DNA of 11,188 nt from a virus (IMGVR_UViG_3300018019_000494), one strand, 5' to 3'; shown: positions 77-10,680, numbered from the stretch's first letter. Program-made: numbers and translations. The notes: generated from the letters alone by a model not told the origin.

Positions 77-286
77 ATGTCGTCTTCCGGTTCGCTCTCG
101 GTGGGTTACTCATCGTCTTCTTCTGCGGAAGAGCTTCGGCGCGAGTTATCAACACCTGACGTGAGGCCGTTGACCGAAGAAGAGGTTGCGTTCTTCGCCA
201 GATACGAGAAGCAGATGAGAGAATTTGTTGTCAACGGCGGGGAGCGTAGGTCAGCTTTTTGGAGGCCATTCAATGGCAAAGGCTAA
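77..286 (+). CDS. Hypothetical Ser-rich small protein. The frame is open from the left window edge, so this could be the 3' part of a longer gene starting upstream of the window.
   Basis: ORF in track. The same frame has no stop between position 2 and 286. GC3 is moderate. There is no strong RBS before ATG 77. Confidence 0.35.
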   Translation: MSSSGSLSVGYSSSSSAEELRRELSTPDVRPLTEEEVAFFARYEKQMREFVVNGGERRSAFWRPFNGKG

Positions 287-289
287 TAT

Positions 290-928
290 GTGGAGGAACT
301 CGTGAGAGAAATAGCGAGCAAGAACCTTAAGCCTAGCGTGAACTACCGCATGGTCCACAGCCGCAAGGGCGAAGCCGTGGTCAAGTGCGTGGAGCCTGAC
401 ACTGACGGCGGGACGTTCGTCGTCATCGAGGGCGAACTCCGGGGCATCAACGATTTCTATGGTCCGGGCGACAAGTTCACTACCATCAATAACCTTGCCA
501 AGTTCTACCGGGAGAAGCCCACCACCGCGAAGAACGTCAAGCAGCGCACGACCAAGCCTGTCCCGATGGGGGAGTTCGGCAAGGACCACTGGAGCACATT
601 CGCCTACCTTGAGACCTGTTGCGTAGACAACGGCGGCGTGGTTGATATTCAACGCATGCGCTGTGCCGCTAACCGTCATCCGCAGTTCGCCCATGCTGGT
701 AGCGATAACGGCATTAGGTATCCGACTCGCACCAAGAGGGGTGAAATCAAGAACCACGACGATTGGGATTGCCTCGACGACTGCGAACTGGTAGGATTGA
801 TCGAGAACACGGGCACGGCGCTTCATCGCGTCTACAAGATTACGGAACTGGGATTCGCGGTCGCCGGGCAGCTTCGTCAACATAAGGCGAACGGTGAAAA
901 TTTCGACAACTTCGTACCGAAGATTTGA
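290..928 (+). CDS. Hypothetical protein, 212 aa, GTG start
   Basis: Long ORF with strong GC3 bias. It starts 4 nt after the stop of the upstream ORF. No recognisable domain. Confidence 0.7.
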   Translation: MEELVREIASKNLKPSVNYRMVHSRKGEAVVKCVEPDTDGGTFVVIEGELRGINDFYGPGDKFTTINNLAKFYREKPTTAKNVKQRTTKPVPMGEFGKDHWSTFAYLETCCVDNGGVVDIQRMRCAANRHPQFAHAGSDNGIRYPTRTKRGEIKNHDDWDCLDDCELVGLIENTGTALHRVYKITELGFAVAGQLRQHKANGENFDNFVPKI

Positions 929-948
929 CTAGCATCTAGGGGAAGAAC

Positions 949-1173
949 ATGGCCAAGGTCGATCTGCCCAACTTACGGAATGCCTGCCAGAGGATGATCG
1001 AGCTTATCGACGAGATCAGCAACCCCGCAACCGACTCCTCGGGCGCACGCAACTTCGGCTTCGCTATGATCGCCGACGAGATCAGGTTCGAGATCGACGG
1101 CGGCGAAAGCTGCGTCCCATCCGTGCGGGAGCGGGCGGCTTTGGTCAAAAGATACGAGAATGAAGACGCGTAA
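949..1173 (+). CDS. Hypothetical small acidic protein, 74 aa
   Basis: ATG preceded by RBS-like GGGGAAG at 938-944. High GC3. Confidence 0.65.
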   Translation: MAKVDLPNLRNACQRMIELIDEISNPATDSSGARNFGFAMIADEIRFEIDGGESCVPSVRERAALVKRYENEDA

Positions 1174-1291
1174 GACGACGAAGCGTAAGAAGAAGCAACC
1201 GAAGCGGTCAACGCCGCTCCCGTCGTACAAGATCGACTGGAGCTACTTGCATCCGCTGATCCGAGACAAACGAGGATTACTGCCGGTATGA
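1160..1291 (+). CDS. Unlisted small, highly basic protein, 43 aa (MKTRKTTKRKKKQPKRSTPLPSYKIDWSYLHPLIRDKRGLLPV)
   Basis: Found by manual translation. GC3 is about 80%. It fills an otherwise 115-nt gap in a tightly packed region. Its TGA forms an ATGA overlap with the 1288 start. Confidence 0.4.
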   Translation: MKTRKTTKRKKKQPKRSTPLPSYKIDWSYLHPLIRDKRGLLPV

Positions 1292-1542
1292 CACCGAGCG
1301 ATCTCGAAATTCTGGTCCACTGCCACGTCAGCCCCGACCCGCACCCACGGCTGCACGCGCCCGCCGTGAAGGACGCGATCCGGCAGTTCCTCGCGGACGG
1401 GATCATCAAGAGGGTTAGTGTAGACATCTATGGGTCAACCGAGCGCGGGGAGATGTGGCTGGAGATGATACTGGACACCCCGATGCCCGTCTACCAACTG
1501 GTGGACCCGCGCAAGCTAGGCCCGACCCTGGAGGAATCATGA
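1288..1542 (+). CDS. Hypothetical protein, 84 aa
   Basis: ORF with high GC3 and an ATGA overlap with the upstream small ORF. Confidence 0.7.
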   Translation: MTPSDLEILVHCHVSPDPHPRLHAPAVKDAIRQFLADGIIKRVSVDIYGSTERGEMWLEMILDTPMPVYQLVDPRKLGPTLEES

Positions 1543-1793
1543 CAACGAAGCGAACGAGGAAGAGCAAGCGGTTCTGGGAGCACGAATACGCCGTCACGAA
1601 GGTTGACCCGGCGTCGGACCGGACCGAGGTGGCGATAGTCGTCGGCAGCCTTGACGCCACGGCGAAGCAGGAAGAGTTCGAGGACGCGGGCTTCTTCGCC
1701 GTCGTCTTCAACAACACGACCAAGGAAGAGGAGTACCGGACGCCTGGCTGCGAGCTTCGGGCGCGGACGGAGAGCGATGAAACCCAAGCCTAG
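1539..1793 (+). CDS. Hypothetical protein, 84 aa, basic N-terminus
   Basis: ATG 1539 overlaps the upstream stop (ATGA). A strong GGAGGA RBS lies at 1530-1535. High GC3. Confidence 0.7.
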   Translation: MTTKRTRKSKRFWEHEYAVTKVDPASDRTEVAIVVGSLDATAKQEEFEDAGFFAVVFNNTTKEEEYRTPGCELRARTESDETQA

Positions 1794-2151
1794 CCAGATG
1801 AACCGCAGGCGCTTCATCGCCATGCTGGGCATGGCACCGGCGGTGGTCGCGGCGGCCAGGCTTCTGCCCAAGCTAGATGCGGTTGCCAGTGTGTCCACGC
1901 CGGTCACCGCATACGCCGACTCCATCGGGCAAGCACTTGAGTTCGCCCCAAGCCACGGGTACAAACCTGGGGACGTTGTCTGCATCACCGGAACAAGCGG
2001 GGGATGGGACGGCGTCTACCGGATGACCGACGACAGGGTCTTCCGACCGAGACCCTGCTCCGCGCCGTGTACCTGCGCGTGGACAACAACATCGTCAGCG
2101 ATATCGTTCGCGCCGAGACGAAAGACCTCGTCAACGTGGACATCAAGCTGA
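1777..2151 (+). CDS. N-terminal segment with a twin-arginine-like signal and TM helix (MKPKPSQMNRRRFIAMLGMAPAVVAAARLL...). Its coding signal ends near 2040. It is probably the N-terminus of the downstream SPFH protein, joined through a -1 frame change.
   Basis: Frame-1 GC3 is near 100% up to about 2040 and then collapses, at which point the -1 frame (the 2004 ORF) takes over. GGAGAG lies 4 nt upstream of ATG 1777. An alternative ATG is at 1798. Confidence 0.5.
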   Translation: MKPKPSQMNRRRFIAMLGMAPAVVAAARLLPKLDAVASVSTPVTAYADSIGQALEFAPSHGYKPGDVVCITGTSGGWDGVYRMTDDRVFRPRPCSAPCTCAWTTTSSAISFAPRRKTSSTWTSS

Positions 2152-2996
2152 GCTACCGCGTCAACTTCCTGCGTGAGCACAAGGATAGGTGGTTCTCCGT
2201 CGAGAACTACGTCAAGTTCCTGTGCGACCACATGCGCAGCCGCCTGAAGGGCGCGGTGAAGAAGCTCGGCGTGAAGGAGTTCATCGAGAACTCCACCGCC
2301 ATCGTCCGCGACACCATCCTCGGTGCCAAAGTCGGGGGCGAGGTACGCCACTTCACATTCGCTGAGAACGGCATGGACGTCTACGACGTCGAAGTGCTGG
2401 GCGCGACCATCAGCGATGACAAGATCGCCGGGCTGCTCCGCAACGCGCAGCAGACCGCCGTCACCACCGCGATCAACCTGTCGGTCGAGGAAGCCTCCCT
2501 CGAAGCCAAGAAGCGCAGCATTGAGATTCAGTCTCAAGTCGCCAAGCTTGACCACACCCTTGCGACAAAGAAACTGGAACTCGCTTCCACGCTGGAGAAG
2601 GCCGAAGCCGAACAGACCATGGCACGCTTGCAGGAAGAGATCGCGCAGACGGTCGCGAAGATGACCGCCCGCGTGGACGAGCAAGCGCAACTCGACACCA
2701 TCGCCGCCGCGACGCTCACGCGCCGCCAGGGTGAGGAGAACTACACGATCTCGCTGGAACAGCAGCGTGTGGACTTCTTCGCGAAGCGCATGGAAGCCGT
2801 CACCCCGGACCTCATCGCCGCGATGAACACCCTCGGCAACAACGAGTTCGCGACGAAGCTGGCCACCGCAATCGCCCCGCTTGCCCTGCACGAACAGAGC
2901 GGCATCGGAACCACCCTGGAGAAGGTTTTCGCCAACACCCCGTTCGCGACGATCCTTACCAACCTGCAATCCAAGCCCGCGAAGGCCGGTCAATAA
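2004..2996 (+). CDS. SPFH/band-7 (stomatin/HflK/C/flotillin-like) domain protein with a C-terminal coiled-coil Ala/Glu/Gln-rich region
   Basis: The segment ...IVSDIVRAETKDLVNVDIKLSYRV... followed by a long EA/K-rich helix resembles the SPFH core plus coiled coil. GC3 is strong from about 2040 onward. The true N-terminus is probably the 1777 ORF. Confidence 0.65.
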   Translation: MGRRLPDDRRQGLPTETLLRAVYLRVDNNIVSDIVRAETKDLVNVDIKLSYRVNFLREHKDRWFSVENYVKFLCDHMRSRLKGAVKKLGVKEFIENSTAIVRDTILGAKVGGEVRHFTFAENGMDVYDVEVLGATISDDKIAGLLRNAQQTAVTTAINLSVEEASLEAKKRSIEIQSQVAKLDHTLATKKLELASTLEKAEAEQTMARLQEEIAQTVAKMTARVDEQAQLDTIAAATLTRRQGEENYTISLEQQRVDFFAKRMEAVTPDLIAAMNTLGNNEFATKLATAIAPLALHEQSGIGTTLEKVFANTPFATILTNLQSKPAKAGQ

Positions 2997-3014
2997 GCCT
3001 TCGGCAGTAAAAAC

Positions 3015-3048
3015 CAGAGGGGGAGCCACCCGGCTCCCCCTTTCTTTT
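3015..3048 (+). terminator. Rho-independent terminator
   Basis: AGAGGGGGAGCC-ACCC-GGCTCCCCCT stem-loop followed by TTTCTTTT, directly after the SPFH gene stop. Confidence 0.8.
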
Positions 3049-3060
3049 AGGGGATGTTAT

Positions 3061-3231
3061 ATGAATGTCAACTGTCGCGGATGCGGCAAGGAAATTCCAG
3101 AAGATAAAGCATTGTATCGCGGTTCACCCGCTAAGAACCACGACGAGTTGGCCGGGCGCGATTGGAAGGACTTCGCAAAGTGCGAAGACTGTGACTACCA
3201 AGATTATAGCAACACCTATGGCGGGATGTGA
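3061..3231 (+). CDS. Small zinc-ribbon protein, 56 aa (CRGCGKE...CEDCDY)
   Basis: ATG with a GGGGA RBS 6 nt upstream. Two CxxC pairs. Confidence 0.65.
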   Translation: MNVNCRGCGKEIPEDKALYRGSPAKNHDELAGRDWKDFAKCEDCDYQDYSNTYGGM

Positions 3232-3452
3232 TCTGGCTGGCCTACGTCGGTTTCGTGCTCGTCTTCCTGTCCTACGCGAGGATTCCCAAGAGTCCCCGCT
3301 CCGGGTGGGCATACGGGGCGTTGGGGAACGTCCTTTACACTATTGCATTCCTGCCCTACCGTAGGGTAGAGTTGCTTTTAGCGCCCGTCGCATTCGCGGC
3401 GCTGTCCGCGTGGAACCTATGGCGAGAACTAAGGAAGACATCCTCGAACTGA
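3228..3452 (+). CDS. Small membrane protein with two predicted TM helices, GTG start
   Basis: GTGA overlap with the upstream stop. Hydrophobic stretches LAYVGFVLVFLSY and LLLAPVAFAALSAW. Confidence 0.55.
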   Translation: MIWLAYVGFVLVFLSYARIPKSPRSGWAYGALGNVLYTIAFLPYRRVELLLAPVAFAALSAWNLWRELRKTSSN

Positions 3453-4261
3453 TCCGGCACACGCCGTTCATGTGGCCCGACTCCGTCATCCACGTATTTA
3501 TATCCGGCTCCGCGATGCACGGCGCGACCGGAAGCCAGCCGACCGACACCGACATCTCCGGGGTGTACATTCAGCCCGTGGAGACGGTGCTGGGCATCCC
3601 GCAGAAGAATGAGGATGGCAAATGGTTCGATCCGGACACCCAGGTGTGGAGCAGCGCTGGCGACCACAGCAAGAACACCGCCGACGACATCGACGTGAAC
3701 CTGTACTCGCTCCGCAAGTGGGCGGGCATGGCGGCGAGTGGGAACACCACCGCCTTGGAGTTTCTGTTTGTGAAGAACATGGTCTGTGAGACTCCTTTGG
3801 AATATACCGTTTGGGATAAGTACATCCTGCCGAACACGCAGCACTTTATCTCCAAGCGTGCGGGCTTCCACTTCGCCGCCTTCGCGGAGGCGATGAAGCT
3901 GCGGCTGAGCGGCGGGAGCACGGGGAGGCACGGGCAAAGACCGGAGCTTGAGACCGAGTTCGGGTACGACGTCAAGGGGGCCATGCACATGCTGCGCATG
4001 CTGGGCGAGGGCATCGAGCTTATGACCACCGGCGCGATCACCCTGCCTTGCCCGGAAGCGGCGTTCCTGAAGGCCGTTCGGAACGGCGAGCTTTCATGGG
4101 CGCAGGTCGATGGGATCGCCGACGCGAGGTTCAGCATCCTTGGCGAGTGCCGCGAGAAGTCTTTCCTGCCTGACGAGATCGACCGGGCGGCGATCAGCAG
4201 GATCATCACCGACGCGCAGATCGAATTCTGGGGCTTGGTAGGCAGCAGGAGGGCGATATGA
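3410..4261 (+). CDS. Nucleotidyltransferase-fold protein of the Pol-beta superfamily. Possibly RlaP-like, that is, of the RNA-ligase-associated type.
   Basis: hG[GS]x(9-13)DxD motif in VFISGSAMHGATGSQPTDTDISGVYI, a later acidic IDVNL strand, then a helical C-terminal domain. The start is GTG 3410; the alternative ATG 3419 is equally plausible. Confidence 0.65.
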   Translation: MEPMARTKEDILELIRHTPFMWPDSVIHVFISGSAMHGATGSQPTDTDISGVYIQPVETVLGIPQKNEDGKWFDPDTQVWSSAGDHSKNTADDIDVNLYSLRKWAGMAASGNTTALEFLFVKNMVCETPLEYTVWDKYILPNTQHFISKRAGFHFAAFAEAMKLRLSGGSTGRHGQRPELETEFGYDVKGAMHMLRMLGEGIELMTTGAITLPCPEAAFLKAVRNGELSWAQVDGIADARFSILGECREKSFLPDEIDRAAISRIITDAQIEFWGLVGSRRAI

Positions 4262-5533: not shown

Positions 5534-6733
5534 ATGTCACATTTTGCGGTTTTGGTGGTGGGCGACGACGTCGAAGGTCAATTGCAACGTTATCACGAAT
5601 TTGAATGTACTGGGCAGGACGACCAGTACGTCAAGGAGATCGACGAGACCGAGGAGGCCCGCAAAACATTCGAGAAGAACACCACCAGGCGGTACAGAGA
5701 CCCCGAGGGCAACCTCCATTCGCCCTACACCCCGGAGGGCAGCCACAGCCCGCTGTTCTGGCGCGAGCTTACGCCCGAGGAAGAGACAAAATATGGCAAG
5801 CGCATCAGCAGCAGCGAGGGGGACGATGGGCTGCGGCTGGAATCCACCGACTGGCACGACGGCAGGGGCTACCGCACGAAGGCGTTCGCCTGGCCCTCCG
5901 ATGGCTGGTCTGAGGTCGAGGTTCCGACGAGTACCGTCCAGACGTTCGCCGAGTTCTGCGCGGACTACTACGGTCACGAGGCCATCCCGTTCGGGACGGA
6001 ACCCGACCTCGCGGAGAAGCACAAGTACGGCTACACCATCGTTGACGAGCAAGACAACGTTATCAGGACAATCAATCGCACCAACCCGGACCGCAAGTGG
6101 GACGGGTACACCGTGGGCGGGCGCTGGAACGGCTTCTTCAAGCTGAAGCCGCTCGCCGTGGGCGTCCTCGGCGAACCCGGCCTACAGGTCATGAACAGCA
6201 ACTACGAGCCGGTCGCCGAAAACCGCGCCGACGTCATCATGAAGGGCGATATCGACGTCGAGGGCATGCGCGACGAGGCCGGGGAGAAAGCTGCCGAGCG
6301 CTACGACATATTCGAGCGAGTCACCGCTGGCCTGCCGCAGGCGCTCTCCTGGAAGCAGGTGCAGGAGAACAACCGCACGGGGAAGATGGACGAGGAGTAC
6401 CCCGGCGAGCCGGAGGTGGACTGGAAGACGGCGAGGGAGGATTACAACTCCCAGCCCATGGTGAAGGCCCTCCGCGCTGACAAGGAGACGATCTGGTACG
6501 AGCTTGACGAGTTCCTCTACACCCGCGAGGAGTACATCCAGCAGCACCGCGACCGCGCCCTGGTGCTCTTCGCCGTCGTGAAGGACGGTGTGTGGTACGA
6601 GCGCGGCAGGATGGGCTGGTGGGGCATGGTCTCCGACGAGAAGGACCGCGACGAGTGGAACAGGCAATTCTCGGCGCTGATCGACGGCCTGCCGGACAAC
6701 ACATTGCTGAGCGTCGTGGATTGTCACATATGA
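5534..6733 (+). CDS. Hypothetical protein, 399 aa, ORFan-like; function unknown
   Basis: Strong RBS AAGGAAAAGGGGA. Long ORF with consistent GC3. Trp-rich motifs (GGRWNGFF, GRMGWWGMVSDE). I could not recognise a domain. Confidence 0.8.
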   Translation: MSHFAVLVVGDDVEGQLQRYHEFECTGQDDQYVKEIDETEEARKTFEKNTTRRYRDPEGNLHSPYTPEGSHSPLFWRELTPEEETKYGKRISSSEGDDGLRLESTDWHDGRGYRTKAFAWPSDGWSEVEVPTSTVQTFAEFCADYYGHEAIPFGTEPDLAEKHKYGYTIVDEQDNVIRTINRTNPDRKWDGYTVGGRWNGFFKLKPLAVGVLGEPGLQVMNSNYEPVAENRADVIMKGDIDVEGMRDEAGEKAAERYDIFERVTAGLPQALSWKQVQENNRTGKMDEEYPGEPEVDWKTAREDYNSQPMVKALRADKETIWYELDEFLYTREEYIQQHRDRALVLFAVVKDGVWYERGRMGWWGMVSDEKDRDEWNRQFSALIDGLPDNTLLSVVDCHI

Positions 6734-10134: not shown

Positions 10135-10680
10135 ATGCCCGACGTACTGGTTCTCGACATGAACTACCGCCCTGTCGGCTTCAAGTCCTGGCAGGACGCG
10201 ATCACGAACGTGTGGAAGGAGCGGGCCATCGTCGTCAAGGAGGACGAGTCCGGCCTGAAGCTCCACTCCCCGTCGTTCGAGGTCGGGATGCCGAGGGTGA
10301 TCCGCGTGCGCAACGCCTGGGTGAAGCGGCGCAAGACATCCGTGCCGTTCTCGCGGCGCAACCTGTACGTCCGCGACGGCGGCGAGTGCCAGTACTGCGG
10401 TAGGCACCTCAAGCTGGAGGAGTACACCCTCGATCACGTGATCCCGCGTTCGCAGGGCGGCGTGAGTTCGTGGGTCAACATGGTCCTCGCCTGCATGCGC
10501 TGCAACAAGCACAAGGCGGGCCGGACGCCGCAGCAGGCAGGGATGCCCCTCCTGCACAAGCCCGTCGTCCCGAAGGTGGACGACCCGAAGTACAACTTCA
10601 AGCTCCACATCCGCAAGATGCGGCCCGAGTGGAAAGAATGGGAGAATTTCCTTTACTGGAATATCGAGCTTGACGAGTAG
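10135..10680 (+). CDS. HNH endonuclease, 181 aa
   Basis: TAGGAGGT RBS. Motifs CQYCG...LDHVIPRSQGG...N...CMRCNKHK (the HNH zinc-finger core). Confidence 0.8.
   Translation: MPDVLVLDMNYRPVGFKSWQDAITNVWKERAIVVKEDESGLKLHSPSFEVGMPRVIRVRNAWVKRRKTSVPFSRRNLYVRDGGECQYCGRHLKLEEYTLDHVIPRSQGGVSSWVNMVLACMRCNKHKAGRTPQQAGMPLLHKPVVPKVDDPKYNFKLHIRKMRPEWKEWENFLYWNIELDE

Follow-up and report, generated by a model that had tools for sequence, protein, structure and literature searches.

An apparent −1 frame change in a phage sequence is very probably the scar of a deletion joining a small Tat-signal gene to the last third of an MVP homolog

Organization of the locus

The stretch of DNA analyzed here (hereafter the window) comprises 11,188 nucleotides (nt) from the virus IMGVR_UViG_3300018019_000494, and the locus in question is a pair of overlapping open reading frames (ORFs) between positions 1777 and 2996, in which the coding signal changes frame close to position 2040. 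The original prediction, made from the sequence of the window, had read the two as a single gene for an SPFH/band-7 membrane protein, with a Tat-like signal and a transmembrane (TM) segment in the first part and the SPFH core and a coiled coil in the second, and had offered three explanations for the split, namely an assembly indel, a genuine disruption and programmed −1 frameshifting. Mechanical ORF calling yields 1777–2151 (124 amino acids, aa) and 2004–2996 (330 aa), overlapping by 148 nt; the open frames themselves overlap over 1941–2151, the in-frame stop upstream of the second ORF being located at 1938.

The G+C content of the window is 59%, and plotting the G+C content at third codon positions (GC3) by frame shows that the coding signal follows the frame of ATG 1777 between approximately 1730 and 2060 and the −1 frame, that of ATG 2004, between approximately 2030 and 2996, in line with the passage from one frame to the other noticed before. 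In the frame of 1777, GC3 drops from 0.79 over 1777–2043 to 0.61 over 2044–2151, and in the frame of 2004 it rises from 0.56 over 1944–2045 to 0.86 over 2046–2996. Beyond the switch either frame thus has the appearance of non-coding sequence, as had also been proposed; the GC3 near 100% quoted at the same time does not hold for the upstream part. Alignment with homologs, suggested earlier as a means of locating the shift, was carried out and places the switch sharply at 2043|2044, on the basis of a three-way alignment of the window with contigs L019, L004 and L017 and of blastn end-points. The flank to the left of this junction matches the gene of a small protein with a Tat-like signal. The flank to the right belongs to a major vault protein (MVP) homolog, where it matches the C-terminal ORF of L004 from codon ~88 and falls within the last vault repeat; the reading frames of the two flanks are offset by one base.

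The downstream frame encodes the C-terminal part of an MVP homolog

The homologous part of the downstream frame extends over 2046–2996 on the plus strand (316 codons and a stop) and contains the last ~10 residues of a Vault_3 repeat, followed by a shoulder domain (approximately nt 2085–2414), a single helix resembling the MVP cap helix (approximately nt 2418–2831) and C-terminal helices. The Pfam family MVP_shoulder (PF11978) matches residues 28–137 of the 330-aa ORF and scores 90.2 bits (cut-off 25; E = 1.3e-25); the match covers model positions 2–117/118, i.e. the domain is complete. No match to Band_7 (PF01145) was obtained for this ORF at E ≤ 0.1. A phmmer search of the PDB returned MVP chains only, residues 20–232 of the query being aligned with MVP residues 512–728 (shoulder and cap helix). 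In the AlphaFold2 model of the 330-aa ORF, built from 43 homologs (mean pLDDT 80), residues 1–18 are disordered, residues 29–136 form an alpha/beta domain and residues 139–276 (~138 residues) form one continuous helix, with pLDDT above 90 over most of its length, after which short helices follow. Foldseek comparison with the PDB gives MVP vault structures as the top 12 matches (E = 1e-11 to 3e-9), with HflK/C, flotillin, prohibitin and stomatin ranking below them (E = 1e-6 to 1e-3).

The downstream family is MVP, and not stomatin or HflK/C; it is SPFH-like at the level of the fold. The earlier assignment of an SPFH core with a coiled coil was correct as regards the type of fold and the long helix, both of which appear in the model and in the Foldseek comparison, but not as regards the family. 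The remnant shares with SPFH/band-7 proteins (stomatin, prohibitin, flotillin, HflK/C) an alpha/beta fold followed by a long helix, and some of its distant relatives give weak Band_7 matches in Pfam; it differs from them in that its matches to MVP are far stronger than this likeness at the fold level. Moreover, fusing the two frames does not give the normal TM-plus-SPFH architecture that had been expected, since every relative carries vault repeats, and not a signal peptide or membrane anchor, upstream of the domain, and the hydrophobic segment belongs to the other gene. A minus-strand ORF of 337 aa (2016–3029) mirrors the remnant; it is not a gene but a shadow ORF of the kind usually seen opposite genes rich in GC3.

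Searches of the protein database identified 115 relatives of the remnant. The closest longer ones are P0002 (83% identity), P0003 (79%) and P0004 (64%), all with Vault_3 directly N-terminal to the shoulder; the similarity to P0002 and P0003 starts at their residues 72 and 88, respectively. Relatives are also encoded by 12 IMG/VR viral contigs, in 10 of them (42–436 kb in length) as one ORF of 810–930 aa, with 510–580 residues preceding the point that aligns to window nt 2046 and with both Vault_3 and MVP_shoulder above the Pfam cut-offs. Full-length genes of ~850 aa are therefore present in at least 10 diverse phage contigs, at 32–49% identity, and three published huge-phage genomes (LR756500, LR756501 and LR756503) have homologs as well. 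Phage homologs of MVP have already been described in two gut phages, and full-length MVP is also found in bacteria and eukaryotes (bioRxiv 10.1101/2023.11.10.566534).

Compared with these proteins, the copy in the window represents the MVP family as a fragment and not as a complete member. It has the shoulder, the long cap-like helix and the short C-terminal helices, but neither the array of N-terminal repeat domains (~520 residues) nor the length of ~800–900 aa nor a start of its own, and it would be unable to form the barrel of a vault-like shell. The homology to MVP relatives begins abruptly, at 2046 in protein and at 2044 in DNA comparisons, and searching all six frames of the window (tblastn, word size 2, E up to 100) revealed no trace of the 71–87 residues that precede this point in P0002 and P0003 or of a further ~430 residues of L004. 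The break lies inside Vault_3 (the domain covers residues 48–97 of P0003, and the junction falls at 87/88) and coincides with neither a domain nor a gene boundary.

In four contigs (L004 8694–11209, L018 8793–11548, L021 2380–4960 and L022 2310–4861), an MVP-like gene of ~850 aa is distributed over two or three ORFs with frame changes. All four are ENA 'contig_N' assemblies in which the homology carries on in the neighboring frame; L021 and L022 do look frame-broken, L004 and L018 probably so, and the N-terminal ORF of L018 also has an internal garbled stretch. These broken frames are probably assembly indel errors and not biology, and such errors account for many of the 'short' MVP database entries. 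Natural short stand-alone forms (P0008, P0082 and others) were considered as well and rejected: in L021 and L022 the N-terminal portion lies 5' of the short ORF in a different frame, so that these forms are frame-broken full-length genes, probably through assembly indels, and other 'short' entries are contig-end fragments or frame-broken full-length genes.

The upstream frame encodes a small protein with a putative Tat signal

What is retained of the upstream gene occupies 1777–2043 on the plus strand (89 codons), the last 4–10 codons and the stop being gone. Its translation begins with the twin-arginine, Tat-like N-terminus MKPKPSQMNRRRFIAMLGMAPAVVAAARLLP, in accordance with the original prediction, and consists of a putative NRRRFIAML...AAA signal followed by a PGDxVxITG...GxYRM...RVF module. 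The match to the Pfam family TAT_signal is below threshold (13.6 bits for the window ORF and 17–19 bits for several other family members, against a cut-off of 22.7); the NRRRFIAML motif, the h-region and the AAA are all visible, and the motif is conserved across the family. An exhaustive HMMER search with residues 1–89 against 1.8 billion representatives retrieved 11 relatives, nine of which are free-standing proteins of 78–112 aa with the same build. Their N-terminus reads M-N-R-R-R-F-L-A-M-L-G-M-A-P-A-V-V-A-A-A-K-x-L-P, which resembles a twin-arginine signal, and their C-terminal module ends ...PGDxVxITG..W.GTYRM...G.F, the free-standing relatives stopping 4–10 residues past that F. The alignment of the window to this family extends to F89, whose codon ends at nt 2043. 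At the DNA level, window positions 1555–2043 align with L019 125–585 at 74% identity and the alignment ends exactly at 2043; the stop codon of the L019 small gene lies 33 nt beyond the equivalent point.

From there the window ORF continues over 2044–2151 with 35 codons, RPRPCSAPCTCAWTTTSSAISFAPRRKTSSTWTSS, and a TGA. This tail is unrelated to the small-protein family and has no homology to anything; it is a product of the deletion discussed below. The hydrophobic stretch that had been taken for the membrane anchor of an SPFH protein is the h-region of the signal peptide in this family of small free-standing proteins. With a good Shine–Dalgarno (SD) sequence (GGAGAG) upstream of its ATG at 1777, the small protein, with its signal, nearly the whole of the conserved module and a foreign tail of 35 residues, may well still be made.

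No match to the 1777 ORF was found by a word-indexed protein search or by a pattern scan of IMG/VR, neither the 1777 nor the 2004 ORF has a match in PHROGs, and blastn of positions 1400–3100 against GenBank phages returned none. The small Tat proteins (P0116–P0126) form an uncharacterized family with no Pfam or PHROG match. The module PGDxVxITG...GTYRM, approximately 45 residues in length, occurs in 17 copies in the 1,839-aa protein P0116 and in two in P0120. For a small protein encoded by a phage, a signal of the Tat type is unusual.

Gene order in related contigs and origin of the junction

The gene upstream of the locus provides an anchor for the synteny to the left of the junction. It lies at 1539–1793 on the plus strand, encodes 84 aa with no assigned function (GC3 0.85; GGAGGAA as SD sequence upstream) and shows 65–79% aa identity to genes of 74–78 aa in L004 (8380–8604), L019 (121–357) and L020 (2349–2573), the identity being 70–79% for the latter two contigs. 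In L019 (Logan ERR12076133) and L020 (JGI 3300086620) the order is the 74–78-aa gene, the small Tat gene, whose open frame in L019 begins MNRRRFIAMLGMAPAVV..., and then the start of MVP. A spacer of 326 nt in L019 and of 78 nt in L020 separates the small gene from the MVP N-terminus, which is 84–92% identical to the N-terminal ORF of L004. In L004 (100 kb) the homolog of the 84-aa gene sits directly 5' of the MVP gene, and the window aligns from 2044 to L004 10260 onward. The two sides of the junction are unrelated genes and not one split TM-plus-SPFH gene; in L019 and L020 they are separate neighbors. The original prediction had held that two separate overlapping genes in homologous phages would speak against a split gene, and in essence the relatives do so: they encode two separate genes, which do not overlap.

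We therefore consider it very probable that the frame switch is the scar of one deletion of ~1.7 kb, by which the end of the small Tat gene was joined out of frame to the last third of the MVP homolog. The ancestor would have been a large, tRNA-rich phage carrying in succession a gene of ~75 aa, the small Tat gene (~85 aa) and a full-length MVP homolog (~850 aa). A single deletion would have removed the 3' end of the small gene (its last few codons together with the stop), the spacer between the genes and MVP as far as codon ~520, leaving only the last ~10 residues of the vault repeats. By joining nt 2043 to nt 2044 it would have left the two genes one base out of register, which would produce the seeming −1 frame change. 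The small ORF would then read 35 nonsense codons into the MVP sequence as far as the stop at 2151, and the MVP remnant would be left without a promoter-proximal start of its own, ATG 2004 and GTG 2067 being the only, fortuitous, internal starts. The size of the deletion is estimated at ~1.67 kb on a composite of L020 and L004 and at up to ~1.9 kb with the L019 spacer, including ~1,566 nt of MVP coding sequence. Of the explanations offered originally, genuine disruption had been among the three; the disruption consists of a deletion of this size and not of a frameshift within one gene.

Two further contigs, L001 and L002, which come from two separately assembled JGI metagenomes, span the identical junction without gaps (2 mismatches over 164–4175 and 1 mismatch over 1397–3295, respectively; ≥ 99.9% identity). 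Moreover, the frame-broken contigs L021 and L022 retain the MVP N-terminal homology in a neighboring frame, whereas the window does not. The locus resembles the deletion remnants of mosaic phages in its synteny on both sides, in a sharp breakpoint within two coding sequences and in an out-of-frame junction that gives rise to a read-through tail and leaves the 3' part of a gene orphaned; as a scar of this kind it has nothing unusual.

Several observations weigh against a deletion or limit what can be said about it. The parent sequences are absent and the end-points and the size are deduced from relatives that are only 74–82% identical in DNA, and alignment to these diverged relatives makes no microhomology visible at the junction. 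No relaxed constraint is apparent either: three-taxon branch estimates for the window give 0.061 nonsynonymous (dN) and 0.278 synonymous (dS) substitutions, a ratio of 0.22, compared with 0.21 for L017 and 0.25 for L004 as intact relatives, and the 316 codons contain no stop. This branch test does not discriminate, and the unchanged dN/dS fits a recent deletion and equally continued function. Finally, the copies of the deleted allele are all nearly identical to one another and give no measure of its age or persistence.

The junction could in principle also be explained with no deletion at all, if a short gene made of the shoulder and the helix were ancestral and the relatives had gained the vault repeats. 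We regard this as very improbable, given that full-length genes are present in bacteria and eukaryotes as well as in at least 10 diverse phage contigs, that the break falls within a repeat domain and within the conserved C-terminus of the small protein, and that the nearest relatives are intact on both sides.

Sequence errors and programmed frameshifting

If the frame change were a sequencing or assembly artefact, a base would be missing or in excess near 2040, for example in the run of five G at 1999–2003, or the join would be chimeric. Such a homopolymer does lie 40 nt upstream of the junction, frame-broken MVP genes resembling indel errors exist in the related ENA long-contig assemblies, and the Logan contig L003 starts 23 nt to the right of the junction. 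On the other hand, homology in frame 1 passes through the G5 run up to 2043, for which reason an indel in this run was rejected, and homology in frame 3 takes over from 2044–2046; a one-base error is not the cause, because the two homologies abut at 2043/2044 and ~520 MVP codons are missing. Restoring one base recreates no known protein, and the independently assembled L001 and L002 have the identical junction. The assembly-indel option is thus excluded in the form in which it had been put forward, and an artefact of any of these kinds appears most unlikely. The contig L003 (Logan SRR7027918) begins at window position 2067; this start could reflect a branch of the assembly graph, with a co-existing undeleted variant, or merely low coverage.

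Programmed −1 frameshifting, the third option, would fuse the Tat protein to the shoulder and the coiled coil and lead to an exported or membrane-targeted SPFH-like protein, reading ...GVYRMTDD into ...TETLLRAVYLRV. The arrangement lends itself to this idea, as the frames overlap over 1941–2151 and a −1 shift anywhere in this region gives the fusion, and the order obtained, with an SPFH fold behind a signal or hydrophobic segment, recalls stomatin and HflK/C, as the original prediction pointed out. The programmed −1 frameshift sites of phages (for example those of the tail chaperone G/GT type) likewise have two overlapping frames, of which the second is in −1. The window differs from such sites in lacking a slippery heptamer, a stimulatory structure and a conserved overlap. 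Indeed, scanning 1777–2151 in phase confirmed that no X_XXY_YYZ heptamer is present, and the search for a stem-loop 3' of 2040, suggested earlier and run on 2040–2140, found no structure better than in shuffled sequences (minimum free energy −28 kcal/mol, mean of the shuffles −28.7, z = 0.21; pseudoknots are outside the fold model). Furthermore, the overlap is a by-product of the deletion, the genes being separate and far apart in relatives, and the fused architecture is seen in none of the homologs of the two genes. With none of its defining features present, frameshifting is, in our view, extremely improbable; the locus is a case of ordinary gene decay in a phage, not a recoding site.

Expression of the truncated gene

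The first possible start of the remnant, ATG 2004–2006 (plus strand), is located inside the small gene in its −1 frame and would give a 330-aa product whose first 13–14 residues are novel. The alternative, GTG 2067–2069 on the same strand, is that of the public gene call, the 309-aa protein P0001 (window 2067–2996). Most genes of the window have a GGAG-type motif 5–10 nt before the start. At ATG 2004 the G5 run abuts the start codon with no spacing, which is poor SD geometry, and no SD-like motif precedes GTG 2067. Downstream of the remnant, a GC-rich hairpin resembling a terminator lies at 3018–3048 on the plus strand (AGGGGGAGCC-ACCC-GGCTCCCCCT, followed by TTCTTTT); the scan reported it on the minus strand, the element being symmetric with U-rich tracts on both sides, and conservation of this region with L004 reaches window position 3049.

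The remnant is most likely a recently truncated gene with little or no function, and we think it probable that it is inactive or barely expressed. As an addition to the deletion, one may consider that the C-terminal module is still translated, from ATG 2004 or GTG 2067, and works alone, for instance as a self-assembling ring or cap. The ORF is open over 316 homologous codons with a dN/dS equal to that of intact relatives, the shoulder domain has its full extent, both this domain and the long helix are modeled with confidence, and the fold is like that of cage-forming SPFH proteins, which oligomerize through exactly these parts; the downstream hairpin is also kept, and at least two separate samples contain the allele. 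Against this stand the lack of a properly spaced SD sequence at either candidate start, the position of ATG 2004 within an upstream ORF that is translated in another frame for 148 nt further, and the failure to find any diverged lineage with the same short form, while an equal dN/dS is also expected under a recent deletion. That the module still works alone is consequently possible but doubtful, and the existence of a stand-alone product of 309–330 aa has to be regarded as similarly uncertain, with the odds against it. Less likely still is a natural 'mini-MVP' made of the shoulder, the cap helix and the C-terminal helices, which would be translated, kept by selection and able to assemble, in the manner of SPFH-family proteins, into an oligomer shaped like a ring or cap.

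Neighboring genes

The synteny with L004 continues 3' of MVP with a RlaP nucleotidyltransferase, a 399-aa gene and an HNH gene. In the window these correspond to the RlaP/phrog_388 nucleotidyltransferase at 3410–4261, to a 399-aa protein at 5534–6733 belonging to phrog_10079 (no assigned function; E = 8e-108) and to an ORF at 10135–10680 that shares 78% DNA identity with the HNH endonuclease gene of L004. Twelve tRNA genes are found on the plus strand between 8333 and 10892 (Trp, His, five Arg with anticodons ccg, gcg, tcg, acg and cct, two Asn, two Lys-ctt and Gln), such an array being typical of large or huge phages. Segments of the window matching several places in L004 (8279–9089 and 10727–10878) are these tRNAs.

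Implications

For annotation, the locus should not be entered as a frameshifted SPFH membrane protein, but as a 5'-truncated MVP homolog beside a small Tat-signal gene altered at its C-terminal end. Full-length MVP homologs of ~850 aa are common in contigs of large and huge environmental phages, which extends the report on two gut phages (bioRxiv 10.1101/2023.11.10.566534); what is new here is that these homologs are widespread in large environmental phage contigs and that the lineage of the window has truncated its copy. Loss of the MVP gene is thus possible in a phage lineage, which bears on the question of its essentiality. If the remnant is expressed, it would define a minimal unit of shoulder and cap helix, and a true mini-MVP would serve as a natural test of how much of the vault protein is enough for assembly or for its role in phage infection.

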